DNA of 64,000 nt. Origin: Candidatus Micrarchaeota archaeon. Lineage in GTDB: Archaea; Micrarchaeota; Micrarchaeia; Anstonellales; Bilamarchaeaceae. This document shows, piece by piece, positions 1,672-45,081 of the stretch. How positions within the stretch are numbered: position 1 is the stretch's first letter; each line of letters starts with the position of its first letter. The stretch spans positions 90,304-154,303 of the forward strand of contig JACRGD010000005.1 in NCBI GenBank assembly GCA_016212525.1. The letters run 5' to 3'. Both the position numbers and the translations under genes were made by a program. The notes beneath the pieces are model-generated. The model did no database searches. It had not been told where the DNA came from and saw only the letters and a list, made by a program, of their open reading frames with translations.

Positions 1672-3010
1672 GATTTCATGTAGTTCGATTGCTCTTTAAT
1701 ATCTGTCGAAAATCATATTCTTTGTCAACTACCGACCATTGAAATGGTCGGCTTGTAACTGTTCTCCTTGCAGATGCAATTCATGGGACGTTAGATCGAT
1801 AAATCCTTCACTTCTTGTCTCTGGTTGGTTGACAACCAACCTGTCAAACTCAGTTTTACCAAGCTTGGCGATGTTTCTAGCAGCATTTAAGTCTGCATTC
1901 AGTTCAAACTTGCACTTTTTGCATTTGAATCTACTTAGTAATCTATTGGTCTTTTCACAGTGACCGCAGTTTGAACAGGTTTGACTCGTGTATTTTGGAT
2001 TCACACACAAAACTGTCTTTCCAAGAGCCACACTTTTATATCTCAAAAAATTCTCAAACTGCTTAAAAGACCAATTTCCAAGTTTTCGATTGAATGTCTT
2101 GCCTTTATTCTGTTTCATCTTTTTCAGATCTTCAAGCGCAAATACTTTGTAACTAGACTCTGCAAGTGCCTTGCTGAGTCTATGATTAATATCAGAGACA
2201 AACCGTTTTTCCCTACCACTAAGACCTTTCAATTTTTGTCTAGCACTTGGGGTGCCTTTGCTCTGCAACACCTGCCTCAGGTGCTGGTATCTGCCTTTTA
2301 CATCTTTTAGATGATTGGAATTGAAGAACTGATTATTTGAACAAACGACGATGTTGTTAATGCCCCTATCAATTCCCAGAACGTCATTCTCTTGGATTTG
2401 TTGTATTGTAGGTGCATCTTTCTCAACTACTAAATTCAGGTATAGTTTATTTTCTCGGTAGCACAAAGTGCCTGCAACTGGAGACCAGTCTAAGTATTTT
2501 TCTATCTGGGGATTTTTCGAAAACTTAAGCTTGAGCCTGCCTGCAATAGATGAAATCGAAATTGATCCATGCAGTAAATTTACTCGCAAATTCCTTTTAT
2601 CCAACCTTAGAAAAGACCTCTTCTTTGCTTTAATTCCTTTTTTTAGTTTTGTTGCCTTCAATGCTTCGGATGCAACATCCCTAACAGTCTGCAAAAGTGC
2701 AGAAGGGAAAGTTGGATATTTCTTGCGGAGTTTTTTGTAGGTGAGCTTGTGCAATTCATTTTTGTTATATGTTTTCTTTGAGTAGCCAATTTTCAAGATT
2801 TCACGATAGATTTCGTTAGCAATATCTATGGTTTGCAGGAGAAAATTATTAGTGTGAAGTTTGATCCTAATTGTTCTTTGCATGAATCTTAGAATCCGGG
2901 CTAGTTTAAATATTTAGACAGACGTCATTTCCGCGGAACTAACTACGAAAGGATGCAAATTCATCTCACAAGACTTCGCGATCTGAAGATCGCTCTTCGA
3001 ATTGATGAGT
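1672..3010 (-). mobile_element. TnpB-only IS200/IS605-family (IS1341-like) element; boundaries approximate
   Basis: tnpB has no adjacent Y1 transposase. There are subterminal hairpins at both ends with the same TGAA loop on the + strand: CCGACCAT-TGAA-ATGGTCGG (1732-1751, overlapping the tnpB 3' end) and GCGATC-TGAA-GATCGC (2978-2993). Only 57 nt separate the tnpB stop from the next gene. Confidence 0.55.
1729..2883 (-). CDS. tnpB: TnpB-like RNA-guided endonuclease (IS200/IS605 family OrfB)
   Basis: 384 aa. The RuvC-like triad contexts are present: GIDRGINN (D), FALEDLK (E) and NADLNAARNI (D). A zinc finger CSNCGH...CKKCKF lies between the second and third. Confidence 0.85.
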   Translation of the reverse strand: MQRTIRIKLHTNNFLLQTIDIANEIYREILKIGYSKKTYNKNELHKLTYKKLRKKYPTFPSALLQTVRDVASEALKATKLKKGIKAKKRSFLRLDKRNLRVNLLHGSISISSIAGRLKLKFSKNPQIEKYLDWSPVAGTLCYRENKLYLNLVVEKDAPTIQQIQENDVLGIDRGINNIVVCSNNQFFNSNHLKDVKGRYQHLRQVLQSKGTPSARQKLKGLSGREKRFVSDINHRLSKALAESSYKVFALEDLKKMKQNKGKTFNRKLGNWSFKQFENFLRYKSVALGKTVLCVNPKYTSQTCSNCGHCEKTNRLLSRFKCKKCKFELNADLNAARNIAKLGKTEFDRLVVNQPETRSEGFIDLTSHELHLQGEQLQADHFNGR

Positions 3011-3129: not shown

Positions 3130-3771
3130 ATGGATAAAAAGATAATTTTACCCGGAGCTAAAATCTCCGATGGAAGATTGAATATCCCAAACACTTATTC
3201 CGATGGTACTGCAACCTATGCAGCAGTTATCGGAACTATGGATGGCGCTGGCCACTACCTGCCACTTGAAACCCGATACCGGGCTTATGTGGGTGATGTA
3301 GTTATCGGCGTAGTTGTCGATTCAATCCATGCGGGATATCGTGTGGCGCTTAATCTGCCCCAAAGTGGTTTCATACCCACAAGGAACATAAAAATCGACC
3401 TTCAATTGGGCGATTTCGTTCTCTGCAAGATCCGCTCTGTAAGTGAGGTCGGTGATGTGGATTTGGGTGAAGTCAGACGACTTCCAAGAGGAAAATTAAT
3501 CAAATTCCCCTCTGCCAAAGTCCCTCGATTGATCGGACGAAAGAGCAGCATGCTTATGCTCCTTAAGACCTATGCCGGTGGCGACTTAATGGTCGGCAAC
3601 AACGGCTATGTATGGCTTAGCGACAAAAGCAACATTCCGCTCCTGTTAAAGGCAATTTCTCACATCGAAAGAAAGGCTCACAAATCGGGTCTTACTGATG
3701 AGATTGCAAATTTGTTAAAAGAAGAAACCGGACTCGATTTACCGGTTCCTCAAGGTGAAACATATGAGTAG
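3130..3771 (+). CDS. rrp4: exosome complex RNA-binding subunit Rrp4 (S1/KH)
   Basis: 213 aa with an S1-like core (GDVVIGVV...GYRVAL) and a KH-like C-terminus. It is the first gene of the canonical archaeal rrp4-rrp41-rrp42 operon. A GAGGT Shine-Dalgarno-like element lies 6 nt upstream of the ATG. Confidence 0.85.
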   Translation: MDKKIILPGAKISDGRLNIPNTYSDGTATYAAVIGTMDGAGHYLPLETRYRAYVGDVVIGVVVDSIHAGYRVALNLPQSGFIPTRNIKIDLQLGDFVLCKIRSVSEVGDVDLGEVRRLPRGKLIKFPSAKVPRLIGRKSSMLMLLKTYAGGDLMVGNNGYVWLSDKSNIPLLLKAISHIERKAHKSGLTDEIANLLKEETGLDLPVPQGETYE

Positions 3772-4510
3772 CAGTATTAGTGACGTTCAATTAATTGTGG
3801 ATGGAAAGCGACTTGACGGTCGAACTGAAAACGAACTCCGGCCAATTAGAATGGAAGTCGGTGTTATTCCCGAGGCTGACGGTTCCGCCTTTATCGAATG
3901 GGGAGGCAATAAAATTATCTGCGGTGTCTACGGTCCACGTGAATGTGTTCCAAAGCACGATGCAAGTCCCTATCATGCGGTAGTCAAATGCCGATACATG
4001 ATGTCTCCTTTTGCCTCTCTTGATGAGCACAGCAAAAGCGGTCCATCAAGGCGAAGCGTTGAGCTCTCCAAAGTCATCCGGGAAGTTTTCGAAAACCTCA
4101 TCAAAACCGAGGCATTCCCAAATACGCAGATCGATATCTTCATCGATGTCCTTCAGGCCGAGGGAGGAACCCGTACTGCTTCAATTACTGTTGCGGCATT
4201 GGCCCTTGCAAATGCAGGAATCCCAATGAAAGATATGGTTTCCTCAGTTGCAGTCGGAAAAGGAGGAAATGTCCTTTTGGTCGACTTGGGAAAAGCAGAA
4301 GACAATTTCGGTCAGTCCGATATGCCTCTTGCGATCTCGAACCGGGACAAATCAATAATGTTACTCCAGATGGACGGTCTGCTAACTAAAGAAGAAATTG
4401 TCCAGATTCTGGAAATGGCAACTGGCGCGTGCGATGTTTTGCACGAGAAACAGTCTGCAGCTCTTTTGAAATTCTATGAAGAGGGCGAGCAGGACGATTT
4501 AAACTTGTAA
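3764..4510 (+). CDS. rrp41: exosome complex exonuclease Rrp41 (RNase PH fold)
   Basis: RNase PH-like sequence (RLDGRTENELRPI, GSAFIEWGGNKI, GGTRTASITVAALALANAGIPM). I prefer the ATG at 3764 to the GTG at 3755. It overlaps the rrp4 stop by 8 nt. Confidence 0.9.
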   Translation: MSSSISDVQLIVDGKRLDGRTENELRPIRMEVGVIPEADGSAFIEWGGNKIICGVYGPRECVPKHDASPYHAVVKCRYMMSPFASLDEHSKSGPSRRSVELSKVIREVFENLIKTEAFPNTQIDIFIDVLQAEGGTRTASITVAALALANAGIPMKDMVSSVAVGKGGNVLLVDLGKAEDNFGQSDMPLAISNRDKSIMLLQMDGLLTKEEIVQILEMATGACDVLHEKQSAALLKFYEEGEQDDLNL

Positions 4511-4523
4511 AGAGGTCTTGATT

Positions 4524-5321
4524 ATGGGAGAAGAAACAAGAGACATTATACTTTCTAATATTCGAAGAGATATTTTGGTCGATACTTTGGCCAAAGGCAG
4601 CCGATTTGACGGCCGGGCATTTGATCAATATCGGCCAGTCAAGGTCCGAAAAGGCGTTCTTGATACTGCAGAGGGTTCTGCACTGGCCGAAGTTGGTCAG
4701 ACTCGCGTGCTTGCTGCAGTTAAGTTCGACGTGGTAAAGCCATTTTCCGATCGTCCTACTGAAGGTGTGTTCGTTACAAATGCAGAATTGCTTCCGTTGG
4801 CATCGCCAACTTTCGAGCCAGGTCCGCCAGATGAAAACTGCATCGAGCTTGCCCGTGTTGTCGATCGTACTATTCGCAGCACTGAGTGTGTAAATGTCAA
4901 AGAATTCTACTTGGAGCCAGAGAAGGTATTGGGTCTTTATGTCGATTTATATGTCCTTAACCACTCTGGAAACTACACTGACGCTTCTACTCTTGCGGCA
5001 ACTGCTGCTCTTATGAATGCAAAAATTCCAAAATACGAAGATGGAAAATTAATTCGTGGTGAATATTCTGGTCCTCTTAATCTTCGTGGTGGTCTTCCGG
5101 TAACTTGTCATATGATAAAGGTCGGAAACTACTGGCTTGTCGATCCATCTAGGGATGAGGAATTGGTTGCTGAAACTGTTCTTTCTATTGGAAACACCGA
5201 TACTCATGTCTGCACTTTGCAGAAGGGTAAAGGTTCTTTGTCTAAGGATGAACTCTTAAGCAACATAGACATAGCATTTAAAAGGGGAAATGATCTAAGA
5301 TATATCTTGCAAAAAGACTAA
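4524..5321 (+). CDS. rrp42: exosome complex subunit Rrp42 (RNase PH-like, non-catalytic)
   Basis: RNase PH-like second subunit (RFDGRAFDQYRPV...) in the conserved gene order. The ATG at 4524 is preceded by AGAGGT. Confidence 0.88.
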   Translation: MGEETRDIILSNIRRDILVDTLAKGSRFDGRAFDQYRPVKVRKGVLDTAEGSALAEVGQTRVLAAVKFDVVKPFSDRPTEGVFVTNAELLPLASPTFEPGPPDENCIELARVVDRTIRSTECVNVKEFYLEPEKVLGLYVDLYVLNHSGNYTDASTLAATAALMNAKIPKYEDGKLIRGEYSGPLNLRGGLPVTCHMIKVGNYWLVDPSRDEELVAETVLSIGNTDTHVCTLQKGKGSLSKDELLSNIDIAFKRGNDLRYILQKD

Positions 5322-5346: not shown

Positions 5347-5580
5347 ATGAGATCTGCAAAATTTGGTGCTTCAATACGAAAACTTTTCAGCGCAGCTGTA
5401 AAGTCACAAAATACTAAGTATGAGTGTCCTCACTGCCACAAAATCAAGATAAATCGCGTGAGTACTTCTGTCTGGAAATGCAAATCCTGCGACGCTATGT
5501 TTGCCGGTGGCGCATATTCCTTTACAACCGAGGCTGGTGAAATTTCAGCCCGTTTGGTTTCTGAATACGCAAGGAGTTAA
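5347..5580 (+). CDS. rpl37ae: 50S ribosomal protein L37Ae
   Basis: 77 aa with the zinc ribbon CPHC...CKSC and typical L37Ae flanks (FGASIRK, AGGAY). Conserved superoperon position. Confidence 0.9.
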   Translation: MRSAKFGASIRKLFSAAVKSQNTKYECPHCHKIKINRVSTSVWKCKSCDAMFAGGAYSFTTEAGEISARLVSEYARS

Positions 5581-5585
5581 TTTCA

Positions 5586-5720
5586 ATGGCACAATACATT
5601 GATCTTAAGACTGGTACTGTTCTGACTGTCGAGGGAGAAAAATTCTCTTTCCCAACTACTGGTGCAAACATCCTTCTTAAGCCAAGACCTCCAATTGCAA
5701 AGGAAGTCCGAGCAGATTAG
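5586..5720 (+). CDS. rpoP: RNA polymerase subunit P (RpoP/Rpb12-like) lacking all four zinc-ligand cysteines
   Basis: A 44-aa ORF that is not in the track: MAQYIDLKTGTVLTVEGEKFSFPTTGANILLKPRPPIAKEVRAD. It sits in the RpoP slot between rpl37ae and Brix. It aligns by eye with archaeal RpoP (MAxYxCxxCG...CPYCGxxIxxKxRxP..K.V.A), but the Cys positions read D, T, F and T. Confidence 0.55.
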   Translation: MAQYIDLKTGTVLTVEGEKFSFPTTGANILLKPRPPIAKEVRAD

Positions 5721-5757: not shown

Positions 5758-6006
5758 ATGTATACTACAAGCAGATATTCCTCTTCTTCTGCAAGGTCTT
5801 TTGCTAAAAAAACTGCACTTGAAAATGGCGAACTTTATGTCGCCCGGGGCAAGAAGACTATCTTTAGGCTTGTTTTCCTTGCCCGCAAGATGGGTGAAGA
5901 GTTTATTGCGGTTGTGGAAGATGGATCCAATGAATCTTTTAATATCTCTTTGATAAAAGTTAATCCGGACGGGGGTTGGAACTGGTGCGATACAAAAGTC
6001 AAATGA
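5758..6006 (+). CDS. Brix/Imp4-like ribosome-biogenesis protein, about half normal length
   Basis: 82 aa starting MYTTSRYSSSSARSFAKK...YVARGKKTIFRLV. This matches the N-terminal Brix signature (TTSR..S.R.RSF...Y.NRGK). The upstream part of track ORF 5662-6006 overlaps rpoP and is rejected. Confidence 0.55.
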   Translation: MYTTSRYSSSSARSFAKKTALENGELYVARGKKTIFRLVFLARKMGEEFIAVVEDGSNESFNISLIKVNPDGGWNWCDTKVK

Positions 6007-6242
6007 CTGTCTCTTTTGAAAGCGAGTCTTCTGCCAAAGCTGCGCTTACTGCCATTAGCCACGAGGGCGAGATTGAGGGTAATGTTCGATCTAAGCTTAA
6101 ATTCTCACAAAAGGGTGTTGATTTGCATATTTCTGCCGATGCTACTGATTCCGTGTCGCTACGTGCCGCTCTTAACTCGGTCCTTAGGATTCTGAGCTCT
6201 ATCGAACAAATCGAAAAAGATATTAATAGTGGTCATGAATAA
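6003..6242 (+). CDS. pcc1: KEOPS complex subunit Pcc1
   Basis: MTVSFESESSAKAALTAISHE...RSKLKFSQKGVDLHISADATDSVSLRAALNSVLRIL aligns by eye with archaeal Pcc1, including the ATD..ALRA..NS.LRW signature. Its ATG overlaps the Brix stop (ATGA). Confidence 0.75.
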   Translation: MTVSFESESSAKAALTAISHEGEIEGNVRSKLKFSQKGVDLHISADATDSVSLRAALNSVLRILSSIEQIEKDINSGHE

Positions 6243-6272: not shown

Positions 6273-6623
6273 ATGGTAAAAAGAGATGAAGATCTGAATC
6301 GAAGCTTAATGGAATACGAAAACATGGAAAAACAGCTCGAAGTCCTGTTGATCCAGAAACACCAGCTCGAGATTCAGCGAAGCGAAATCCGACATGCTGT
6401 CGATGCTCTTAAGGGCGCAACTGGCGATGTATATCGATCCGTTGGAACTGTTCTGATTCACACTACTAAAGATACTGCAGAAAAAGACCTTAAAGAAAAG
6501 GAAGAACTTTTGGAAGTCAAAGTCAACGCTCTTGCGAAACAGGAAGAACGACTTAGGTCTACTGTAATGGATCAGCAGAAGAAACTACAGGAACGACTTA
6601 AGGACTATAGTAAACCTAGCTAA
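6273..6623 (+). CDS. pfdB: prefoldin beta subunit
   Basis: 116-aa coiled-coil / beta-hairpin / coiled-coil protein (LEVLLIQKHQLEIQRSEI...VYRSVGTVLI...). Conserved superoperon position. Confidence 0.85.
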   Translation: MVKRDEDLNRSLMEYENMEKQLEVLLIQKHQLEIQRSEIRHAVDALKGATGDVYRSVGTVLIHTTKDTAEKDLKEKEELLEVKVNALAKQEERLRSTVMDQQKKLQERLKDYSKPS

Positions 6624-6779: not shown

Positions 6780-7739
6780 ATGACTCTCGACTCCAACATT
6801 ACGATTTTCAAAAATTTCCTCAAAAAATATGGCAATAAGCGAATCGCAGTAGTTACTCACAACAAAGCCGATGTCGATGCCCTCTCATCCGCATTCGCCC
6901 TTAGTTCTGTTCTGCCAAACAGTATCATCTGCACTGACGAGGACATGAAAAACGGTGCCGATGCTCTGTGCGAGCGCCTTAAGATCAAGGTTCACTCTCT
7001 TCCTGATTTCGAGCAGTTCAAAGATGAATTTGCCGGAATTATCGTTACTGATACTGGCGCATATACTATGTGTCCGGCAACCCGAGACTGGAAAATCCTA
7101 TGCATCGTAGATCATCATCAGGCATCGGGTCGGGACATGAAAGCTGAGTTCGAGATCTTCGATGACAAATCCCCATCCGCGGCAGAAATAGTTGCAAATC
7201 TTATCGATCCAAAACAGAAAGATGTTTGCTTCGCCTTAAGTGTCGGAATCATTGCCGATGGTGCCCGGTTCAAGAGTGCCCGGCAGCAGACCTTTGAAAC
7301 TTTGGGCCGATTAATGAAAATTGCCGATGCTCCTTATGGTGAATTGCTTTCGTACGCTGAGCCAGAGCCCAAGCCCGAAGCCAAGGCTGCGATCCTTAGT
7401 TGTCTAAGTAAATCTAAGTCGGTCTATGTAAATGATTATTTTGTGGCTACTAGCGAAACTATCAGCAACGAGAGCGATGCTGCATCTGCCCTTACTGAAG
7501 CTGCTGATGTTGCCTTTGTTGCCAAATGGAATGATGAATTTCAGGAGACCCGGGTTGGTGCCCGGGCAAGAAGAATGGTTAGCGTTCCTATGAACGAAGT
7601 TATGTCTCTTGCAGCTAAATCTACTGGCGGCTCTGGTGGCGGGCACCCCAAAGCAGCCGGCGGAGCGTTTAAATGCCATACTCAGGAAGCATTGGAAAAA
7701 TGCATTGAGACTTTTGAAAAACTAAGCAGAACTACCTAA
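6780..7739 (+). CDS. DHH/DHHA1-family phosphoesterase (NrnA/RecJ-like)
   Basis: Motifs HNKADVDALSS, IVTDTG, VDHHQ (DHH) and GGGHPKAAG (DHHA1). Confidence 0.8.
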   Translation: MTLDSNITIFKNFLKKYGNKRIAVVTHNKADVDALSSAFALSSVLPNSIICTDEDMKNGADALCERLKIKVHSLPDFEQFKDEFAGIIVTDTGAYTMCPATRDWKILCIVDHHQASGRDMKAEFEIFDDKSPSAAEIVANLIDPKQKDVCFALSVGIIADGARFKSARQQTFETLGRLMKIADAPYGELLSYAEPEPKPEAKAAILSCLSKSKSVYVNDYFVATSETISNESDAASALTEAADVAFVAKWNDEFQETRVGARARRMVSVPMNEVMSLAAKSTGGSGGGHPKAAGGAFKCHTQEALEKCIETFEKLSRTT

Positions 7740-21932: not shown

Positions 21933-22322
21933 ATGCAATTTTTGAAAGATGTGAATTTGAAGGAAGTTTGTATATCTATTCTTATCTCAATAGTTTTATT
22001 CCTACTTCTTAAACCATTTTACGTATACAATGTATCTCTTGTTTGTGGAGGTTCAAAAGAAGTATTTCTATACTCTACCGGTTCAGATCTTTTTAGGATT
22101 CGAGGTTGTCTTTATACTTCCATCAATCAGCCATTTCAAAACTTAGTCTGGGATCTTCTAATTTATACTTTGCCTTGGATTCTGGCTTTCTGCTACTATT
22201 ACTACAAAACACCAAATGTTAAATTTGATTTCAAAATTTTGCCTTTTGGTTTAATCCTGTGTGGTTATCTGCTTTTTCAAGTGCTCTATATATTATATAT
22301 TTATCCAGGTAATCTCCTATGA
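21933..22322 (+). CDS. small integral membrane protein (hypothetical)
   Basis: 129 aa with three or four hydrophobic helices. Its stop overlaps the subtilase start (ATGA). Confidence 0.5.
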   Translation: MQFLKDVNLKEVCISILISIVLFLLLKPFYVYNVSLVCGGSKEVFLYSTGSDLFRIRGCLYTSINQPFQNLVWDLLIYTLPWILAFCYYYYKTPNVKFDFKILPFGLILCGYLLFQVLYILYIYPGNLL

Positions 22323-24925
22323 GACTTGCAACTGGGGCTATCTCTAACCATCATCGATCTATTGAATTGAAAAAAGAAAAAAGACTAGCTCTTTTTTCTA
22401 CAATTGCGCTTGCAGGTTTAGCCTCCTGTGTTGTTGATTCTCCACCTGACCAAAATCGATTTGGATTCTTAAATGAAATTCATTTAACAAGTCCGACTAG
22501 ATTTGTTCCATTTAGGAGGTCTGGTTTTAGTTCCGATCTTTTAGTTGGAGAGAATCAATTTTTGCTCTATTATGAGCCAGACATAAGTCCAGATCAAAAA
22601 AACAGAATTGAAGATTGGCTTTTAGGACAAAATGCACGCAAGGTTGGTCAGAACCCCTTTTCATCAATGACTCAATATGAAGTTTTTTCTTCAGTTCAGC
22701 TAAATTCGATCTTAGATTACCTTAATGCGCAGCCCGGAGTCGTTACTGCTATCCCTAATCTGGTCCTTAGACCAACTCTAAATCCCGATCCTGATTTGTC
22801 AACCTCTTTCGATTCGGGTAACTGGTGGTTAACTTCCCTTAATCTTAGAGATGCCTGGTCTATAACTACTGGCTCTAGAGCGATTCCAATTGCAATAGTT
22901 GATTCAGGAATAGATTCTGGAGTTGGTGGTTTTGGAAGTAAGCCTATCACTCATTTTGTAAGATGTACTAGACCTATAGGTGGTAGAACAGAGGTTTATT
23001 TTTCTCTTTTGGCAGGTTCTAATCCGTACCATTGTTCTCAATATATTTCTGGTGTTCATGGAACGCAAGTTGCATCGATTGCAGCGGCACCTGGAGATGA
23101 CCATTTGGGCGGTGCTGGTGTTGCGTGGCAAAATCCATTGATCTCAATTGATGCTTATGGTTACTCTGGCGTCGGATCAGTAACTCTTGCTGAGACTGAT
23201 GCTGCAATCCAAACTGCAATTAGGGCAGGAGCACGTGTGATAAATGTCTCACTTGGATATGGGGGTTGTATTGCTCCTCTTTTTTGTATTTCTAACAATC
23301 AAGAGGCTCGTCATATTTTCCGGTCTGGTTTTATCAATTCCGCTCGTGTCGCTAATCGAAACAATGCCTTAGTTGTCTTTGCCGCAGGCAATGACGGTTT
23401 TTCAGGTGATGATAGTTGGCTATCGCCAGCTGATAGACAATACGAAAGATATTTCATAACTAATGTTCTTTTTGTGGGGTCGGTTGACTATCTCAATGAT
23501 CCGACCTGTAATGCTTGTAATTTTTCATCTGCTCTCCAAACTATTTGCAGGGATAATGGAACTTCTGACTTAAGCAGGTTGAATCGATGCAATTGCTTTT
23601 GGTGTAGTAGTTCAACTTTAAGTGGTCGATTAACTGCCAGCGGCAGAGTAGTAGAATTGTATACTCCTGGCTGTCACATTGCGGTTCCTATGAGTAGCAC
23701 CTTGGTCCAAGGTAGTTCGATATCTTCCCCAATGGTCTCCGGAGCAGCCGCTCTAGTCTGGTCAGTAAATCCAAACCTTACAGCCCCGCAAGTAAAACAG
23801 ATTTTGTTGGATACGGCTCGTTCTGCATCTAGTCTAGGTGGTTGTATGGACGTAGGTAGAGGTATCCCCGATGTTGCAGCCGCAGTCCGGGCAGCAAGAG
23901 CAACTTTGCAGGATGCTTCTGTTCCGACTGATGCTTCAGTTGATGCAACTTCCGATGTATCAAGAACAACGACATTCTATTCTCAAGCACGTTTACTCAG
24001 AAACAATGATGTCCTTCTTCGTGGAAATGAGGTTTTACCTGGTACTCATTATTCTGCCCTTCTAACGAGACTTAGTTCAAGTGGTCGACCTCTTTGGACA
24101 TTTCAACCCTCTAGATCTGAATCGCAAATTGGTGCTTTATATGAAGATGAGCGGGGTCTTTGGATCTCTGGGAGATGGCAATCTGGTGGATCAACTTCTA
24201 GAGCTGCACTTGCCCAACTAGATAGTTCAGGAGCTCTAGTTTCAGAGCGTTTACTTCCAGACTCAGATCTAATAAGAAGTCTTTTTGTAAACCCAGACGG
24301 CTCTCTGGTTGGTGATACTGGTTATCAATTATTTGAATATGATAGTTCTGGTCGCCCAGTCTGGGTAACTCGTGCCCGTCCTGCTACTCCTTTTGATGTT
24401 GTAAGAACTTCTGCTGGTTATGCCTTTTTCCGTTATAATGGATTATATGGTGTAAACCGTACTGGTAATATTGTTCTGGATTCTGGGTATGTTATAGGTC
24501 ACGATAATTCCTTTGCATATTCTCCAAATGCTGGTTCTGGTTGGTATATTCTAAGTGATTCTCCGTTCTCTGATCAATCCTTATCTCATCTAGATTACGA
24601 AGGACACTCAAGATTCTTAGGCCAATTATCCATTCCCAATTTACGTGCTTTTGATTCTCCAAATTCCTTGGCAATGACTAGGGCAAGTCGGTCCTTTGTT
24701 CTTTTTGCCCGTTACCATACTACTGATGGTGCCGGTCAAACAAAACTTTTTGGAGTTTCTGATTCTGCCACGATTCTTTGGTCAAGATCTCTTGATTTTA
24801 GGGCTCGAAATGTTGATGGTTTAATGACTACTTCTGACGGTCGCATCCTTCTTGTCTCAACTGACAATACAAATCCCTCGCAAGTTAGGCTTGATTATTT
24901 TGATGAATCTGGCAACCCTCTCTAG
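22319..24925 (+). CDS. S8 subtilisin-like serine protease with a C-terminal repeat (beta-propeller-like) region
   Basis: Catalytic contexts AIVDSGID (Asp), HGTQVASIAAA (His) and GSSISSPMVSGAAALV (Ser). Lipobox-like LASC near the N-terminus. The C-terminal ~330 aa carry repeated SGRP(L/V)W-type strands. Confidence 0.85.
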   Translation: MRLATGAISNHHRSIELKKEKRLALFSTIALAGLASCVVDSPPDQNRFGFLNEIHLTSPTRFVPFRRSGFSSDLLVGENQFLLYYEPDISPDQKNRIEDWLLGQNARKVGQNPFSSMTQYEVFSSVQLNSILDYLNAQPGVVTAIPNLVLRPTLNPDPDLSTSFDSGNWWLTSLNLRDAWSITTGSRAIPIAIVDSGIDSGVGGFGSKPITHFVRCTRPIGGRTEVYFSLLAGSNPYHCSQYISGVHGTQVASIAAAPGDDHLGGAGVAWQNPLISIDAYGYSGVGSVTLAETDAAIQTAIRAGARVINVSLGYGGCIAPLFCISNNQEARHIFRSGFINSARVANRNNALVVFAAGNDGFSGDDSWLSPADRQYERYFITNVLFVGSVDYLNDPTCNACNFSSALQTICRDNGTSDLSRLNRCNCFWCSSSTLSGRLTASGRVVELYTPGCHIAVPMSSTLVQGSSISSPMVSGAAALVWSVNPNLTAPQVKQILLDTARSASSLGGCMDVGRGIPDVAAAVRAARATLQDASVPTDASVDATSDVSRTTTFYSQARLLRNNDVLLRGNEVLPGTHYSALLTRLSSSGRPLWTFQPSRSESQIGALYEDERGLWISGRWQSGGSTSRAALAQLDSSGALVSERLLPDSDLIRSLFVNPDGSLVGDTGYQLFEYDSSGRPVWVTRARPATPFDVVRTSAGYAFFRYNGLYGVNRTGNIVLDSGYVIGHDNSFAYSPNAGSGWYILSDSPFSDQSLSHLDYEGHSRFLGQLSIPNLRAFDSPNSLAMTRASRSFVLFARYHTTDGAGQTKLFGVSDSATILWSRSLDFRARNVDGLMTTSDGRILLVSTDNTNPSQVRLDYFDESGNPL

Positions 24926-26131: not shown

Positions 26132-27103
26132 ATGCTAAAATTTCTTTTTATTGTTGTTTTTTCTATTGGATTAGTTAGTTCTGTTTCTTATATCTCTAAT
26201 TGTACGGTGATAACTAAACCCGGAACTTATCTTCTTGATCGTGACATCCTGGTTTCACCAGCAGAACTTGGTAAATGTATTTTGATTGATTCGGATAATG
26301 TTGTTCTGGATTGCCAGAATCATACTTTGAAAAATGACCCGGCCGCTCCTTTGATGTCTGGTATTCAAGCTTTTTATCAGAACAATCTTACTGTTCAAAA
26401 TTGTATTTTGGATGGTTTTGGATCTGGTATTTCAATCCACAAAATTAATAATTCCATCTTTCATGATAATCTGTTCACTCATAATTCTGATGGTTTTATT
26501 ATGAGTTTTTCTCGAAATGTCATGTTATATTCCAACCAATTCTTTAGAAATGAAAACGGTCTTACTGTCAGTTCTCTCATAAATCTATCTTTTTATGATA
26601 ATGCGGCGATCAACAACTCCCATTATGGTTTTGATATTATTGCCAATTTATCAGATATTAACTCAAACTCTGCTTCTGAAAATCAGGTTGGTTTCAGTGT
26701 TTCCCTTTATGATGGTAATTTTACTAATAATTCAGCAACTCGAAATAAGGATGGTTCTGGTATTTCCGGTTCCAATGTTAATGTGAACAAAAATTTTTTC
26801 TCAAACAATTCTGAAGATGGTCTCTCCCTAAGTTTGGAAAACTCAAATATCTCAGGTAATTTCATTTGCGGCAATGGTTTCTCGGATAGCTATCACTATT
26901 ACGATCTCTATGGAAATTATCCTCAGTACAATAACTCCCTCCAAAACAACACTTGCCAGACTTCAAATCCTCCGGGGAATTGCAATTCCCCGTGTTCTCT
27001 TTCTTCCTCCCTGCAGATTTCATCAAAACCAGGTTCTTGTTTTGGGCTTGCTATTCTCTTTACTGTGATTTCTTTATCTCTACTTTGGAAGGGCTTCCAA
27101 TGA
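26132..27103 (+). CDS. right-handed parallel beta-helix (PbH1/NosD-like) repeat surface protein with a C-terminal TM anchor
   Basis: Signal peptide, then about 9 degenerate ~22-aa repeats rich in N/G/S (NxxxxNxxxGI/F...) that are typical of PbH1 coils. C-terminal hydrophobic anchor CFGLAILFTVISLSLLW. Confidence 0.65.
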   Translation: MLKFLFIVVFSIGLVSSVSYISNCTVITKPGTYLLDRDILVSPAELGKCILIDSDNVVLDCQNHTLKNDPAAPLMSGIQAFYQNNLTVQNCILDGFGSGISIHKINNSIFHDNLFTHNSDGFIMSFSRNVMLYSNQFFRNENGLTVSSLINLSFYDNAAINNSHYGFDIIANLSDINSNSASENQVGFSVSLYDGNFTNNSATRNKDGSGISGSNVNVNKNFFSNNSEDGLSLSLENSNISGNFICGNGFSDSYHYYDLYGNYPQYNNSLQNNTCQTSNPPGNCNSPCSLSSSLQISSKPGSCFGLAILFTVISLSLLWKGFQ

Positions 27104-34071: not shown

Positions 34072-34413
34072 ATGGGATTATCTGATGTCTTTAAGGGCAT
34101 GTTTTCCAAGAAATCCGAAATGCCCGAGGGCAAAGGTACAAATGAACTTAAATGCCCCAATTGCGCGACTCCCATTAGTCTTTCAATGGAGCGATGTCCC
34201 AGCTGTGGCGTGCGTATAAAAAGTATGTTTCGGATGCGCTGTCCAAAATGCAATGCGCTCAATGAACTGGGTTCGAAAAAGTGTTCCAAGTGCTTTTACG
34301 ACTTTTCAGTGCCTTCCGAAAAGCCTAAAAAAAGTTATGTATGTCCAATATGTGGGTATGAAATGGATACATTCCTTACTTCGTGTCCGGCGTGCTCAAC
34401 CTCTTTCGTGTGA
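34072..34413 (+). CDS. multi-zinc-ribbon protein
   Basis: Six CxxC pairs, forming about three zinc ribbons (CPNC...CPSC, CPKC...CSKC, CPIC...CPAC). Confidence 0.6.
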   Translation: MGLSDVFKGMFSKKSEMPEGKGTNELKCPNCATPISLSMERCPSCGVRIKSMFRMRCPKCNALNELGSKKCSKCFYDFSVPSEKPKKSYVCPICGYEMDTFLTSCPACSTSFV

Positions 34414-40769: not shown

Positions 40770-42143
40770 TTATCTAAGGAGCGCTTCAAATGCCTTTTCT
40801 ATCTTTTCTTCAATCTGTTTTATTTCCAGTTCTTTTTTTGAATCCAGTTCTATTTTTCTTTCCAATCGTTTCCTCTCTAATTCTATTGCTCCGTCCCACT
40901 CTTTTTGAGTTAGTTCTTTTGGCGGTTTAATCTGGCTTAGCTGCTTTCCTGCACTCTTGGCCTCAAAGACTAGTTTTCCAACTATTCCGTGCGCATCTCT
41001 AAACGAGATCCCTTTTCGTGCGAGCGTATCTGCGATTTCGGTGGCCTGTGCATATCCGTTTTCGAGCTCTAGGGTTATTTTTTCCTCCTCGAACTCTATA
41101 TCTTCCAGAATTTTCGAAATTATTTCTGTGCTTGATATCGCTGTTTTTAGACTTTCCATCATGCAGCCTTTGGTTTCCTGCAAATCCGAATGATAGCCTG
41201 AAATAAGTCCTTTTTTGATCGAGAGTACCTGATTGAGGCTCCCATTTACTTTCGCTGCTCGCGCTCTTATGAGTTCAAGGACATCCGGGTTTTTCTTATT
41301 TGGCATAATGCTGCTGCCTGTACAATACTTGTCTGGTATTTTGATCAGCTCTTTCTGTGAAAGCCAAATCAATTCCTCAGAAATCCCAGAGAGTCGGGTC
41401 ATGTGCATGGACAAAATCCAAAGCAGTTCGGCTTCTAGCTCCCCTCTGGAGTTTATTGCATCCATTTCATTTTCTTCAATTCCATCAAAACCCAGAAGTT
41501 CTGCAGTGTATTTGCGATCTATTGGCCAACTAGTTCCTGATATCGCGCATGCACCAAGCGGATTTTTGTTCACTCTTTTTAGAAATTCAATTGTTCGATC
41601 TATGTCCCGTTCAAGTCCACTTGCTATCGATTGCGCCCAAAAGCTTATTGTTATTGGTTGAGCTACCCGCGTGTGCGTATATGCAACCATCAGACCCTTT
41701 TTCGCTGCCTGGTTTTTGAGGCTCTCCTGAATCTTGAGTACCCCTTTTGCAAATTCTATAGCTCCGTCGCGCATGTAGAGTCTAAGATCCAGAAGTACCT
41801 GATCATTTCGAGAGCGCGCGGTATGCATCTTTTTACCGGCATTTGTTTTCTTGCTTACAATTGCCTCTATATTAGAGTGGACATCCTCTAGTGCAGGATC
41901 AAGTTTTATCCTGTTCTCCATTCCTAGATTATATACCTCCTTCAGGACTCGAGATATTTCATCACTCTCCTGCTTGGTGAGAATGCTCGCTTTTGCGAGC
42001 ATTTTGACGTGGGCTAAGTTACCTAAGATGTCATAGATTATCAGTTTCTCATCTAAGACTATGTTCTCGCCCGAATTGAAGGAGATTATTTCTCCCTCAG
42101 CGCCACTAAATGCTCCCTGCCAGAGTTTTTCTGATTTCTTCAT
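40770..42143 (-). CDS. argH: argininosuccinate lyase
   Basis: Fumarate-lyase signature GSSIMPNKKNP and HTARSRNDQV. 457 aa. Confidence 0.9.
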   Translation of the reverse strand: MKKSEKLWQGAFSGAEGEIISFNSGENIVLDEKLIIYDILGNLAHVKMLAKASILTKQESDEISRVLKEVYNLGMENRIKLDPALEDVHSNIEAIVSKKTNAGKKMHTARSRNDQVLLDLRLYMRDGAIEFAKGVLKIQESLKNQAAKKGLMVAYTHTRVAQPITISFWAQSIASGLERDIDRTIEFLKRVNKNPLGACAISGTSWPIDRKYTAELLGFDGIEENEMDAINSRGELEAELLWILSMHMTRLSGISEELIWLSQKELIKIPDKYCTGSSIMPNKKNPDVLELIRARAAKVNGSLNQVLSIKKGLISGYHSDLQETKGCMMESLKTAISSTEIISKILEDIEFEEEKITLELENGYAQATEIADTLARKGISFRDAHGIVGKLVFEAKSAGKQLSQIKPPKELTQKEWDGAIELERKRLERKIELDSKKELEIKQIEEKIEKAFEALLR

Positions 42144-42147
42144 TTTC

Positions 42148-43389
42148 TCACTGCTTTCCTTTCTTCTTTCGGTTTATTATGGCATTGTGCGCCATAAGTC
42201 GTACTGCATTTATTTTTATGAATCCTCTGGAATCTTTTTGATCGAACCCACCTGCAATGTTCATGCTAGAAAGATCTTGGTTATATAGTGAGCTTGGCGA
42301 TTGCCGACCTGTTATCGTTATATTGCCCTTATAGAGGCTCATCATAACGACTCCGTCTATTATTTCCTGGCTCTTGTTTATTGCGGCCATCAAAAAGTCC
42401 ATTTCCGGGCTAAACCAGAATCCATTGTATACCAGCTCGGCAAACTTTGGCGCCAACATATCTCGTAATCGCATGACTTCACGATCCATGGCTATCGATT
42501 CGATGTCCATATGTGCCGCCCGCAAAATTGTTGCTCCTGGCGTTTCGTAAACTCCCCGCGACTTAATGCCTACAAACCGATTCTCGACAATGTCTATTCT
42601 TCCAATCGCATTCTGAGCTCCCAGTTCATTTAGGTACATAAAGACCTCAAGCGGATCCGTTTTCTCAACGCCTGTTTTTTTGTTGACGACCTTGACTGGC
42701 ACGCCATCTTTGAAATGTATCTCAATGTGTGTTTCCTCATCTGGCGCATCTTTTGCAGATTTGGTCCATTCGAACATATCTGAAGTTGGAGCAATCATCG
42801 GATCTTCCAATATTCCCGATTCGTAACTGATGTGCATCAGATTTGCGTCTGTGCTGTAAGGTTTTGCGTGTGTTGCCTTTATCGGAATTCCCTTCTCCTT
42901 TGCATAGTTAATTAGGTCAGTTCTTCCCTTGAACTTTGCCAAAAATTCCTCGTCTTTCCACGGTGCGATGACCTTTATCTGAGGGTCCAGCGCATAGTAT
43001 GTGAGTTCGAATCGGACCTGATCGTTTCCTTTGCCCGTGGCTCCATGTGAAACATATTGCGCGCCTTCTTTTTTGGCAATTTCCATCTGTTTCTTTGCAA
43101 TGACTGGGCGTGCGAGAGACGTTCCAAGCAGATATCTTCCCTCATATATGGCATTCACCTTGATTGCCGGGAAAATATAATCGGTTACGAATTCTTTTTT
43201 GAGATCCTCAACATAGACTTTACTCGCGCCGCATTTGAGTGCCTTTTCTTTTGCTGCCAATAAATCCTCGTTCTGTCCGACATCTGCAATGTATGCTACA
43301 ACTTCATAGCCTTTTTCTACTAGCCAGACTAAAATGCATGAAGTATCCAATCCACCCGAATAAGCCAAAACAACTTTTTCTTTTGTCAT
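42148..43389 (-). CDS. argG: argininosuccinate synthase
   Basis: [11 protein letters not shown]-loop, [12 protein letters not shown] and [15 protein letters not shown] motifs. Confidence 0.95.
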
Positions 43390-43429
43390 AGTTTTTCACC
43401 TTTTTTATTGATGTTAATATTTCTTTTTT

Positions 43430-44407
43430 CTACTCTCGAACTAATGGAAGCGTAGAGCATCGGGCATATCCTTCGCCTAGAACTACTTCGTCCATTGGCA
43501 GATGTATGACCTCCGTTCCCAGATTATTAAGTATTTCTATTACTTTCTCGCATCGCGGATTTACAAACACTGTCTCCGGGTTAATCCAGAATCCGTTTGT
43601 TCCAAGAAGCTTTGCTTCAGTCTGTGAAATTCCATGGAGTTTTCCATATACTTTCTTTAGGAGTGTCACTGATGCTGGATCTGCAAATGCAGATTCATAA
43701 ACCAACGCGCCTCCGGGATGTCCGTTTGGTTTTGCAATCGGTCCAAATGCACAATCCAAGTGTAGGATTCCTGGTTTTAGTGGCACGTTTATAACTTCAA
43801 ATTCCGTGCCTACTACTTCCTGTAGCCATTTGACTGCCGCCAAATTTGTTCGATCACCCGTACCCAAAAACAACAAATCTCCCTCGAGTACTACGTTTCC
43901 TCCTTCTATCATGACCTCGCGGGGTGGTATGATTCCTCCGATTAGTTGCTCTTGCTCGGGCTTTCGAACATCTGCTCCCATATTGCAATGGATTAATTTT
44001 TTCCCTGCCACAAAACCAATGTCTCGGGTATAAACCCCCTCTGGTATGTTTTCTTTTGGAGGAAGCAGTTGCACCTCTATTCCATGTGAAACCAATGCCA
44101 TTATGAATCCAAAATGCTCGATTACTGCCTTTGACCGGTTTGGTCGATTGTCCATATTTGCAGCTTCTGCTTGATTTATTGGTGTTCCCCAGTCAAGATA
44201 TGCTGGAAGAGAAACAACTACTGTCCTGACTTTACCTCGTTCGTCTTTAGCGTTTACTCCACAAATTCCAGCTGATACGCTGTCTACTAACTGTATGTGT
44301 TCAAGCTGTCCTCCTTTTCCCATAAATCCATGTGCAAGTGAGACTGCAATTTTATCAATTGGTCGAAAACCATTTTTTGCAGCTGTTGCTGTAGATGTTG
44401 TAGTCAT
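43430..44407 (-). CDS. amidinotransferase-superfamily enzyme (arginine deiminase / DDAH-like)
   Basis: HLDCAFGPI and the C-terminal GEGYARCSTLPL catalytic-Cys context are typical of guanidino-group-modifying enzymes. Confidence 0.55.
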   Translation of the reverse strand: MTTTSTATAAKNGFRPIDKIAVSLAHGFMGKGGQLEHIQLVDSVSAGICGVNAKDERGKVRTVVVSLPAYLDWGTPINQAEAANMDNRPNRSKAVIEHFGFIMALVSHGIEVQLLPPKENIPEGVYTRDIGFVAGKKLIHCNMGADVRKPEQEQLIGGIIPPREVMIEGGNVVLEGDLLFLGTGDRTNLAAVKWLQEVVGTEFEVINVPLKPGILHLDCAFGPIAKPNGHPGGALVYESAFADPASVTLLKKVYGKLHGISQTEAKLLGTNGFWINPETVFVNPRCEKVIEILNNLGTEVIHLPMDEVVLGEGYARCSTLPLVRE

Positions 44408-44474
44408 GGTTTCTTTAGCTCAAAATTTCATATTTAAACATTTCGTAACTATTGTTACATTTTAATGATTCATT

Positions 44475-44489
44475 GTTACAAATGGAACA
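44475..44489 (-). promoter_or_regulatory. candidate operator TGTTCCATTTGTAAC (read on the minus strand) upstream of the amidinotransferase gene
   Basis: Exact 15-mer shared with 45148-45162, in the same orientation relative to the downstream gene. A neighbouring ATTGTTACA half-site repeat is at 44451. Confidence 0.35.
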
Positions 44490-44493
44490 ATTA

Positions 44494-45081
44494 TTAATTC
44501 GCAATCGTAATCATGGTCGGCTCAAGTACCTCGATTTTCTCTATCACATTTCCTGATTGAACCTGAGTTATTCCATGACCAAATATGACCCACTTTTCGC
44601 TTTTGTGCTGCCAATCACTTTGCAATACATACCATCCGTTTATCGGGTTGGTGTGCGTGGCTCGCCATATCAGTGCTTGTCCATATTCTGAACTTTTTAT
44701 CTCTTTCATAAGTGCTTTTGCAATCCCCTTTCCCTGATTCTCTGCTGGCACTGCGATCTTATCTAGATAGGCAACATCGCCTATTTTTTTCACTATTGCT
44801 GCTCCTTCATAGTTGCCTGCTATCAAAATCTCCAGCACTGCTGGTTCTTTCATTTCAAAATAATCGTCTTTGAGTTTTTTGCCAAAGCTTCGCTCAAGAA
44901 GTTCTTTCAATCGAGTTTTATCAACTTCATCAAAACTTGCATATTTTCTTATCTCGACCAGTTGTCTTGGCTTTTCACTTATGGATTTTGAACCAAATCC
45001 TGCTTGTGCGGATGGTGTGGTCCTCCCAACTCCTGATTGTGATTTCTCATCCCTATCAAATATTTTTCTTAATTCGTGCAT
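44494..45081 (-). CDS. GNAT acetyltransferase (N-acetylglutamate-synthase-like)
   Basis: YLDKIAVPAENQGKGIAKALMKEI resembles the NAGS-type GNAT core. It lies in an arginine-gene neighbourhood. Confidence 0.5.
   Translation of the reverse strand: MHELRKIFDRDEKSQSGVGRTTPSAQAGFGSKSISEKPRQLVEIRKYASFDEVDKTRLKELLERSFGKKLKDDYFEMKEPAVLEILIAGNYEGAAIVKKIGDVAYLDKIAVPAENQGKGIAKALMKEIKSSEYGQALIWRATHTNPINGWYVLQSDWQHKSEKWVIFGHGITQVQSGNVIEKIEVLEPTMITIAN

Follow-up and report, generated by a model that had tools for sequence, protein, structure and literature searches.

RpoP/Rpb12 belongs to the small number of subunits common to the RNA polymerases of all archaea and to the three eukaryotic nuclear polymerases, and its four cysteines count as a defining feature of the protein. 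In the archaeal exosome superoperon, the usual place of rpoP is after the gene for ribosomal protein L37Ae. Here we describe a 44-codon open reading frame (ORF) in this place, within a 64-kb stretch of DNA (hereafter the window) from contig JACRGD010000005.1 of a Candidatus Micrarchaeota archaeon. The C4 zinc ribbon (CxxC...CxxC) of RpoP/Rpo12/Rpb12 is absent from its product. We regard it as likely that the ORF is rpoP inherited in place, with its zinc ligands replaced and with both the role of a polymerase subunit and a ribbon, now zinc-free, retained.

The closest described proteins are the archaeal RpoP/Rpo12 subunits (2PMZ_P of S. solfataricus, 4QIW_P of T. kodakarensis and 8CRO_P of P. 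furiosus). Like the window protein, they are 44-49 amino acids long, begin with MxxY, have two knuckles whose Pro and Gly occupy equivalent positions, carry a C-terminal hhxKxRPxhxxxV peptide and are encoded after L37Ae. They differ in that the four Cys are replaced here by Asp, Thr, Phe and Thr (D/T/F/T) and the Arg before the third Cys is gone; the tail, with a charge of about +2, ends here in Thr-Asp (Asp being invariant), whereas theirs, at +5 to +7, end in KAI or KAR. The delta-P polymerase of P. furiosus, without this subunit, forms no stable open complexes (Reich et al. 2009, PMC2680338). A synthetic P peptide 32-49, of which K37 and R39 are the conserved residues, restores open-complex formation and gives about 80% of single-round activity, and archaeal P and eukaryotic Rpb12 are interchangeable (PMC2680338). 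Eukaryotic Rpb12 (RPABC4; in Pol I, II and III) is a homologous adaptor of Rpb2/Rpb3 with a zinc ribbon and a basic tail, but has a longer N terminus and, in nature, all four Cys; the likeness of the window protein to it is seen via archaeal RpoP and weak Foldseek matches only. According to a study quoted in PMC2680338 (Rubbi 1999), one of the four Cys of yeast Rpb12 is essential and three tolerate mutation.

Loss of zinc from small modules is known elsewhere. Zinc-ribbon ribosomal proteins have zinc-free (C-) isoforms (Makarova, Ponomarev & Koonin 2001, cited in PMC10450194). As far as that citation goes, these resemble the present case in the recurrent loss of ligand Cys from a small zinc ribbon that stays in its complex, but they are mostly bacterial and often occur as C+/C- pairs switched by zinc supply, whereas here an RNA polymerase subunit is concerned and no paired C+ copy was found in 159 kb (the window and ten related loci, L001-L010). 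In bL33 CCCD variants, Asp takes the place of one Cys in the zinc site (PMC10450194). The LID of adenylate kinase contains either a tetra-Cys zinc site or a hydrogen-bonded His/Ser/Asp/Tyr(Thr) tetrad at the same four positions, and that of B. subtilis has a Cys3Asp zinc site (PMC4227292). The LID is likewise a small knuckle-type module built with or without zinc, but it belongs to an unrelated protein; the D/T/F/T set has one hydrophobic member, and its hydrogen bonding would be by analogy. In light of the C- ribosomal proteins and of the results with mutants, loss of the ligands from an RpoP appears plausible.

A cysteine-free family related to RpoP

The ORF has an ATG start and translates to MAQYIDLKTGTVLTVEGEKFSFPTTGANILLKPRPPIAKEVRAD, a protein of 44 amino acids with 0 Cys and 0 His. 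A first protein search returned four relatives (67-75% identity, 44-45 amino acids), and a profile search of 1.84 billion cluster representatives returned nine clusters, all Cys-free; no canonical RpoP was reached at an E-value of 0.001 in the latter search, which by itself is therefore no proof of homology. Employing a 17-sequence alignment as the query, we obtained 235 proteins, the best 120 of the 235 at E < 1.5e-18. There are at least 120 relatives of 43-60 amino acids, nearly all of them 43-45; those with named records are Candidatus Micrarchaeota archaeon or Candidatus Bilamarchaeaceae archaeon, except for one labelled Aenigmatarchaeota. Five GTDB species representatives with the gene are all labelled Micrarchaeota, and NCBI taxonomy places Bilamarchaeaceae within the order Anstonellales, class Micrarchaeia. 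Named NCBI records of the relatives read 'hypothetical protein', and the name 'RPC12/RpoP' already stands on seven JGI records among the relatives listed. In pairwise comparisons of the window gene with three relatives, the ratio of nonsynonymous to synonymous substitution rates (dN/dS) was 0.04-0.07, with synonymous sites saturated. Clearly, both halves of the Cys-free protein are under strong purifying selection, and the 44-codon ORF is a genuine gene, under constraint and belonging to a defined lineage. The window DNA was also present in groundwater metagenome runs.

The RpoP family is represented by Pfam PF03604, COG1996 and NCBIfam PRK00398. In NCBIfam, the window ORF matched the RpoP equivalog models alone (E 0.0016, 0.031 and 0.087), with scores of 12.7-18.2 bits versus curated cut-offs of 63-89, and RpoP models were matched by 108 of the 120 family members (best E 1.1e-6). 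When a five-sequence profile was run against the chain sequences of the PDB, the top two matches were 4qiw_P (T. kodakarensis RpoP, E 0.009) and 8cro_P (P. furiosus Rpo12, E 0.18); FPtTGArvLLKPRPPIAKEv was aligned to CPYCGSKILYKPRPRVARRVK, and the tail to KILYKPRPRVARRVK of 4qiw_P. Using hhalign, we compared the family with four archaeal RpoPs and one eukaryotic Rpb12 fragment taken from the PDB. The match had 84% probability (E 7e-6, 42 columns) and placed D6, T9, F22 and T25 on the four Cys, which in Sulfolobus 2pmz_P are C6, C9, C26 and C29; the same pairing had been proposed by eye in the original prediction.

We further built a hidden Markov model (HMM) from 78 canonical basic-tail RpoPs and searched 3538 six-frame ORFs of at least 25 amino acids from the window and the ten related loci. 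The eleven Cys-free ORFs were the eleven best of the 3538, and the window ORF (E 8.9e-6, 22.9 bits) was the best among the six-frame ORFs of the window. Based on these sequence comparisons, homology of the Cys-free ORF to bona fide RpoP was shown. By descent and position, its product is an RpoP: a zinc-free derivative, not canonical by motif or by curated threshold.

Conservation was counted in 120 family sequences and Cys was surveyed in 127 fetched sequences. None of the 127 relatives has Cys at any ligand position; 120 are without any Cys and 7 have a single Cys off the ligand positions. The loss of all four ligands, predicted from the window alone, is thereby seen throughout the lineage. 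The ligand columns read D/T/F/T (counts in Table 1), and the knuckles are DLKTG and FPTTG in place of CxxCG and CPxCG, with the turn residues kept (G10 in 117/120, P23 and G26 in 120/120). At least 90% conservation was found for M1, E3, Y4, D6, K8, G10, K19, F20, F22, P23 and G26, and at least 94% for M1, E3, Y4, K8, K19 and F20; the replacement residues and 10 further N-terminal positions are conserved at 87% or above. At position 21, where a conserved Arg precedes the third Cys in RpoP, the residue varies among A, T, S, V and N. Conservation of the N-terminal half almost equals that of the tail, in which K32 (117/120), R34 (118/120), P35 (120/120) and D44 (120/120) stand out. In the alignment, K32 and R34 correspond to K37 and R39 of P. 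furiosus, and the tail ends in the acidic, invariant Asp.

These columns bear on whether the protein still binds metal, through Asp6 together with hydroxyl or backbone ligands. D6 is nearly invariant, and Asp does replace one Cys in the zinc sites of bL33 CCCD variants and of the B. subtilis adenylate kinase lid; however, one plausible metal ligand is left, the invariant Phe22 is unable to coordinate metal, and the 5372 residues of the whole family include 7 Cys and 8 His, none at ligand positions. We consider metal binding of this kind highly improbable.

A sister family with four cysteines and the probable order of changes

Scanning metagenomes for DNA that matches a degenerate pattern encoding CPxCGxx[hydrophobic]LxKxRPP, we found 120 matches, of which all 120 were canonical four-cysteine (Cys4) RpoPs, and the loci recovered matched the usual placement of rpoP. 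Four of them have an acidic end as in the Cys-free family. Such Cys4 acid-tail RpoPs include those of L070 (2298-2435) and L091 among the scan matches. A protein search with the Cys4 RpoP of L070 gave four proteins (P0128-P0131), too few to size the clade, each with a precomputed PF03604 match; one of them, the acid-tail copy in locus L132, matched RpoP equivalog models at E 6e-15. The acidic end ...KEVx[TS]D, with its final Asp, is common to the Cys-free clade and the Cys4 sister clade, whereas the other RpoPs recovered end in basic ...VKRVKAR (tail charge about +2 in acid-tail proteins versus +5 to +7). The two acid-tail families are alike in the ...K-x-RPP[IV]AKEV-x-[TS]-D tail, in length, in slot and in the superoperon including DHH; the sister form differs in that it still has CxxC...CPxCG as well as the Arg that precedes the third Cys.

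In hhalign, the Cys-free and Cys4 acid-tail families were aligned end to end (44 columns) with 97.6% probability and E 3e-12, again with D6, T9, F22 and T25 on the four Cys. With BLASTP, the window protein matched P0128 at E 7e-9 over the tail. The gene order around the Cys4 acid-tail gene is proteasome alpha - SBDS - Rrp4 - Rrp41 - Rrp42 - L37Ae - RpoP - Brix-like - Pcc1 - PfdB - DHH, and the same extended synteny (PfdB, DHH) was found in L009, L131 and L133. The DHH/DHHA1 gene follows prefoldin beta directly in both acid-tail clades, Cys-free and Cys4, and in none of the other canonical loci matched. The slot occupied by the Cys4 RpoP of the sister clade is identical, so the Cys-free gene can be taken as its positional ortholog.

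The neighboring proteins point the same way. Rrp41 of the window is 58% identical to that of L070 versus 48% to those of other canonical loci, and Rrp42 is 50-52% identical to the Cys4 acid-tail proteins versus 41-43%; after those of the Cys-free loci, the closest neighbor proteins are those of the Cys4 acid-tail loci. A neighbor-joining tree of Rrp41 and Rrp42 (490 columns, 100 bootstraps; a simple distance approach limited to two proteins), with three basic-tail loci as the outgroup, showed the nine Cys-free loci as monophyletic and sister to the Cys4 acid-tail clade, and an unrooted three-protein tree agreed with it. The most parsimonious order would be a change of the tail from basic (...VKRVKAR) to acidic (...AKEVxTD), followed by a single loss of the four Cys and of the Arg before the third Cys. 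This gives an evolutionary series from basic-tail Cys4 through acidic-tail Cys4 to acidic-tail Cys0, in which the loss is clade-wide and complete (4/4 ligands), with a fixed alternative set; the Cys4 bridge makes the transition experimentally tractable.

The Brix-like gene 3' of rpoP changed as well. It encodes 150 amino acids in the Cys4 sister clade (L132, 6884-7336) versus 68-95 in the Cys-free clade (in L009, 10135-10383). The Brix-like protein of the window matches the family profile only at positions 4-75 out of 208, in its N-terminal third to half, and aligns to residues 4-79 of the 150-residue sister-clade protein. Judged from these alignments, the shrinkage would fall on the same branch as the Cys loss, with the N-terminal half alone left.

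Archaeal genomes usually have one rpoP. No canonical rpoP was found in the 159 kb covered, which comprise the window (64 kb) and the ten related loci (95 kb). A six-frame scan of the window for CxxC...CxxC detected a TnpB protein, L37Ae, a triple zinc-ribbon protein, a 65-residue ORF unlike RpoP and spurious frames; in the search with the 78-RpoP HMM, the eleven Cys-free ORFs were followed by weak zinc-ribbon matches to L37Ae, and none scored as a canonical RpoP. The Cys-free gene is probably the sole rpoP of the genome. If it were instead an RpoP-derived paralog or relic, the working polymerase would use a canonical Cys4 RpoP encoded elsewhere. The inspected sequence, which amounts to 64 kb from this genome and some 95 kb from relatives, leaves some room for this, but the Cys4 RpoP of the sister clade lies in exactly the same slot, no canonical copy occurs within the 159 kb and the Cys-free gene is under strong purifying selection (dN/dS as above). 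We judge this alternative very unlikely.

Cysteine is not scarce in the organism. The 14 annotated proteins of the window contain 1.2% Cys, and both CxxC pairs of the neighboring L37Ae, noted in the original prediction, are present in every Cys-free locus; on these two grounds general Cys depletion was ruled out. A 113-residue protein with three consecutive CxxC...CxxC zinc ribbons (DZR/Zn_ribbon_3) is encoded at 34072-34413 (+), indicating that zinc ribbons are otherwise kept in this genome.

Proposed folding and function without a zinc site

The reading we prefer runs as follows. rpoP would have been inherited in place within the exosome superoperon of this groundwater archaeon of the Micrarchaeota (DPANN). 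In the ancestor of the clade, the four zinc-ligand Cys would have been replaced, Asp6, Thr/Ser9, Phe22 and Thr/Ser25 then being fixed, while the Pro and Gly of the knuckles (DLKTG, FPTTG) were presumably kept through the replacement. The Cys-free RpoP most likely binds the Rpo2/Rpo3 groove via the C-terminal peptide LLKxRPPIAKE, and its N-terminal hairpins most likely form a small ribbon-like module without zinc. Hydrogen bonds among Asp6, Thr9 and Thr25 may hold this module, with Phe22 filling the former metal site.

The C-terminal peptide with a conserved Lys and Arg that marks RpoP is present, with K32 and R34. Since the peptide is retained with these residues, we infer that the protein is still a subunit bridging Rpo2 and Rpo3, and it would be incorporated into RNA polymerase. 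The constraint on the N-terminal half and the kept Pro and Gly of the knuckles argue that a ribbon-like double hairpin is still formed; folding would then be independent of metal. AlphaFold2 models, of low confidence, were built from the Cys-free alignment and then with the Cys4 bridge sequences added, with predicted strands at residues 3-6, 12-14 and 30-31. When the two models were compared with the PDB by Foldseek, RpoP/Rpb12 was the top match and made up 5-6 of the best 13 (TM-scores 0.45-0.59), and zinc-free adenylate kinase lids were among the weak matches. The structural similarity to RpoP/Rpb12 is suggestive only.

Several observations weigh against this reading. With PF03604, a model dominated by its Cys columns, neither the window ORF nor the 120 relatives gave a match at E up to 10, and no profile reached its curated threshold with the window ORF or the relatives. 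The expectation that an RpoP profile would recognize the ORF was thus borne out for the NCBIfam RpoP models and the 78-RpoP HMM, but not for PF03604, and the NCBIfam matches were all below curated cut-offs. The same scores could be read as those of a chance or non-homologous small ORF between L37Ae and Brix, with no Pfam match and with a third of the family members weakly matching an unrelated domain, PcrA_UvrD_tudor (best E 0.005). That explanation is already effectively refuted, and we give it next to no weight: the more than 120 conserved relatives and the dN/dS of 0.04-0.07 rule out a chance ORF, hhalign connects the family to bona fide RpoP at 97.6%, and RpoP is the exclusive NCBIfam match and the best PDB match.

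The PcrA/UvrD Tudor is an RNA-polymerase-binding domain in bacteria. Membership of this family (PF21196) was considered and rejected: weak matches over residues 3-39 were seen in 40 of the 120 members, two example scores being 13-15 bits versus a gathering threshold of 23.9, and the window protein had no match. The similarity is probably due to chance.

Other adverse points concern structure and function. The pLDDT (predicted local distance difference test) was 60-61 in both AlphaFold2 runs, and neither Foldseek run gave a significant match (E >= 0.33), so the N-terminal fold is not established by the models. The C27S/C30S mutant of P. furiosus P binds loosely and is strongly impaired (PMC2680338), which indicates that simple loss of ligands is harmful; a compensating role of the D/T/F/T set is a conjecture. 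Tail charge matters in yeast Rpb12, according to the same quoted study (Rubbi 1999, cited in PMC2680338), and the net charge of the tail here is +2.2 versus +5 to +7 in characterised RpoPs. Taken with the invariant C-terminal Asp, the low charge suggests a possible co-adaptation of the binding groove. In the sequencing-run search, only groundwater DNA runs contained the sequence and no RNA run did.

Some of these points speak for a function confined to the C-terminal peptide, the N-terminal half being a flexible leader or having a new role rather than forming a ribbon. A C-terminal Pyrococcus P peptide of 17-18 residues suffices in vitro for most functions of the polymerase, pLDDT is about 60 throughout, and the Arg before the third Cys is lost, with A/T/S/V/N at position 21. 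However, conservation in the N-terminal half comes close to that in the tail (118/120 sequences have T or S at position 9), the Pro and Gly of the knuckles persist, almost every member has a length of 43-45 residues, and both models have strands at the places of the ribbon strands, with RpoP chains as the best structural matches. A function of the peptide alone therefore appears to us unlikely, though it is the most serious alternative to a retained, zinc-free ribbon.

In full-text searches of the literature on RpoP/Rpo12 with Micrarchaeota, DPANN or Cys loss, we found no Cys-free RpoP described, an absence that is no proof of novelty. We put at about even the chance that the full picture holds: that this is the first natural zinc-free Rpb12/RpoP, with a whole Micrarchaeota clade whose polymerase assembly platform lacks the Rpo12 metal site and in which D/T/F/T replaces zinc structurally, after the acidic ...KEVxTD tail arose and together with the halving of Brix, as part of a conserved information-processing machinery re-engineered in this lineage of reduced symbionts. 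A universal zinc-ribbon subunit, RpoP/Rpb12, can apparently exist without its metal site. The family would be a natural experiment on the purpose of the zinc ribbon, one that fits the core role of the C-terminal peptide in vitro (PMC2680338) and may reveal which residues were selected to compensate, given that simple Cys-to-Ser mutants fail. With PF03604 missing the family and the named NCBI records reading 'hypothetical protein', rpoP can seem missing from Micrarchaeota in gene-content surveys.

Gene neighborhood and other features of the window

The locus is an archaeal exosome superoperon, as marked by the exosome genes rrp4, rrp41 and rrp42, and the ORF occupies its rpoP slot (Table 1). 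Profile scans of the neighbors bore out the predicted position of this unannotated ORF between L37Ae and Brix. Its ATG lies 5 nucleotides after the stop codon of L37Ae. The order L37Ae - ORF - Brix-like - Pcc1 - PfdB - DHH is common to the window and L001, L002, L003, L009 and L010, in which every Cys-free relative with context inspected occupies the same slot.

Table 1. Coordinates of the Cys-free rpoP, its parts and its neighbors in the window
Feature	Position	Strand	Basis
rrp4 (exosome)	3130..3771	+	Pfam KH_6/RRP4_S1
rrp41 (exosome)	3755..4510	+	Pfam RNase_PH/RNase_PH_C
rrp42 (exosome)	4518..5321	+	Pfam RNase_PH/RNase_PH_C
rpl37ae (eL43), 5' neighbor, zinc ribbon intact (CPHC...CKSC)	5347..5580	+	Pfam PF01780, E 3e-21
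GGAG, putative Shine-Dalgarno-like element, 9 nucleotides 5' of the ORF ATG, within the end of the L37Ae gene	5573..5576	+	letters of the sequence; presumed role
Putative rpoP/rpo12 ortholog without zinc ligands, 44 codons and stop	5586..5720	+	ORF, family, RpoP profiles, hhalign, dN/dS
N-terminal half, residues 1-26, probable zinc-ribbon remnant	5586..5663	+	column-wise alignment to 2pmz_P and the Cys4 sister family
Codon 6, Asp replacing zinc ligand Cys 1	5601..5603	+	hhalign; D 117/120
Codon 9, Thr replacing zinc ligand Cys 2	5610..5612	+	hhalign; T 104/120, S 14/120
Codon 22, Phe replacing zinc ligand Cys 3	5649..5651	+	HMMER, hhalign; F 120/120
Codon 25, Thr replacing zinc ligand Cys 4	5658..5660	+	HMMER, hhalign; T 88/120, S 32/120
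C-terminal tail, residues 27-44, ANILLKPRPPIAKEVRAD	5664..5717	+	counterpart of Pyrococcus P peptide 32-49
Brix/rRNA-maturation-like, half-size, 82 amino acids, 3' neighbor	5758..6006	+	NCBIfam PRK03972, E 1.6e-5
pcc1 (KEOPS subunit)	6003..6242	+	Pfam PF09341, E 1e-12
Prefoldin beta	6273..6623	+	Pfam
DHH/DHHA1 phosphoesterase	6780..7739	+	Pfam

The GTG start of rrp41 lies 17 nucleotides within rrp4 (3755-3771), and the ATG of pcc1 and the stop codon of the Brix-like gene overlap as ATGA (6003-6006). These overlaps suggest translational coupling inside the operon. Just upstream of the exosome operon, a TnpB/Cas12f1-like protein (OrfB_IS605) with an intact CxxC...CxxC zinc finger is encoded at 1729-2883 (-).

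Downstream, about 14 tightly packed ORFs lie on the same strand at 10964-31996 (+), including those for proteins of 1153 and 1253 amino acids. This run is nearly without Pfam matches, the exceptions being a subtilase of family S8 (22319-24925) and a beta-helix/NosD-like protein (26132-27103), and it possibly represents a cluster for secretion or for the cell surface. An arginine-metabolism cluster at 40770-45081 (-) encodes argininosuccinate lyase, argininosuccinate synthase, an amidinotransferase/arginine-deiminase-like protein and an acetyltransferase of the N-acetylglutamate-synthase type, which is a notable biosynthetic capacity for a DPANN genome.

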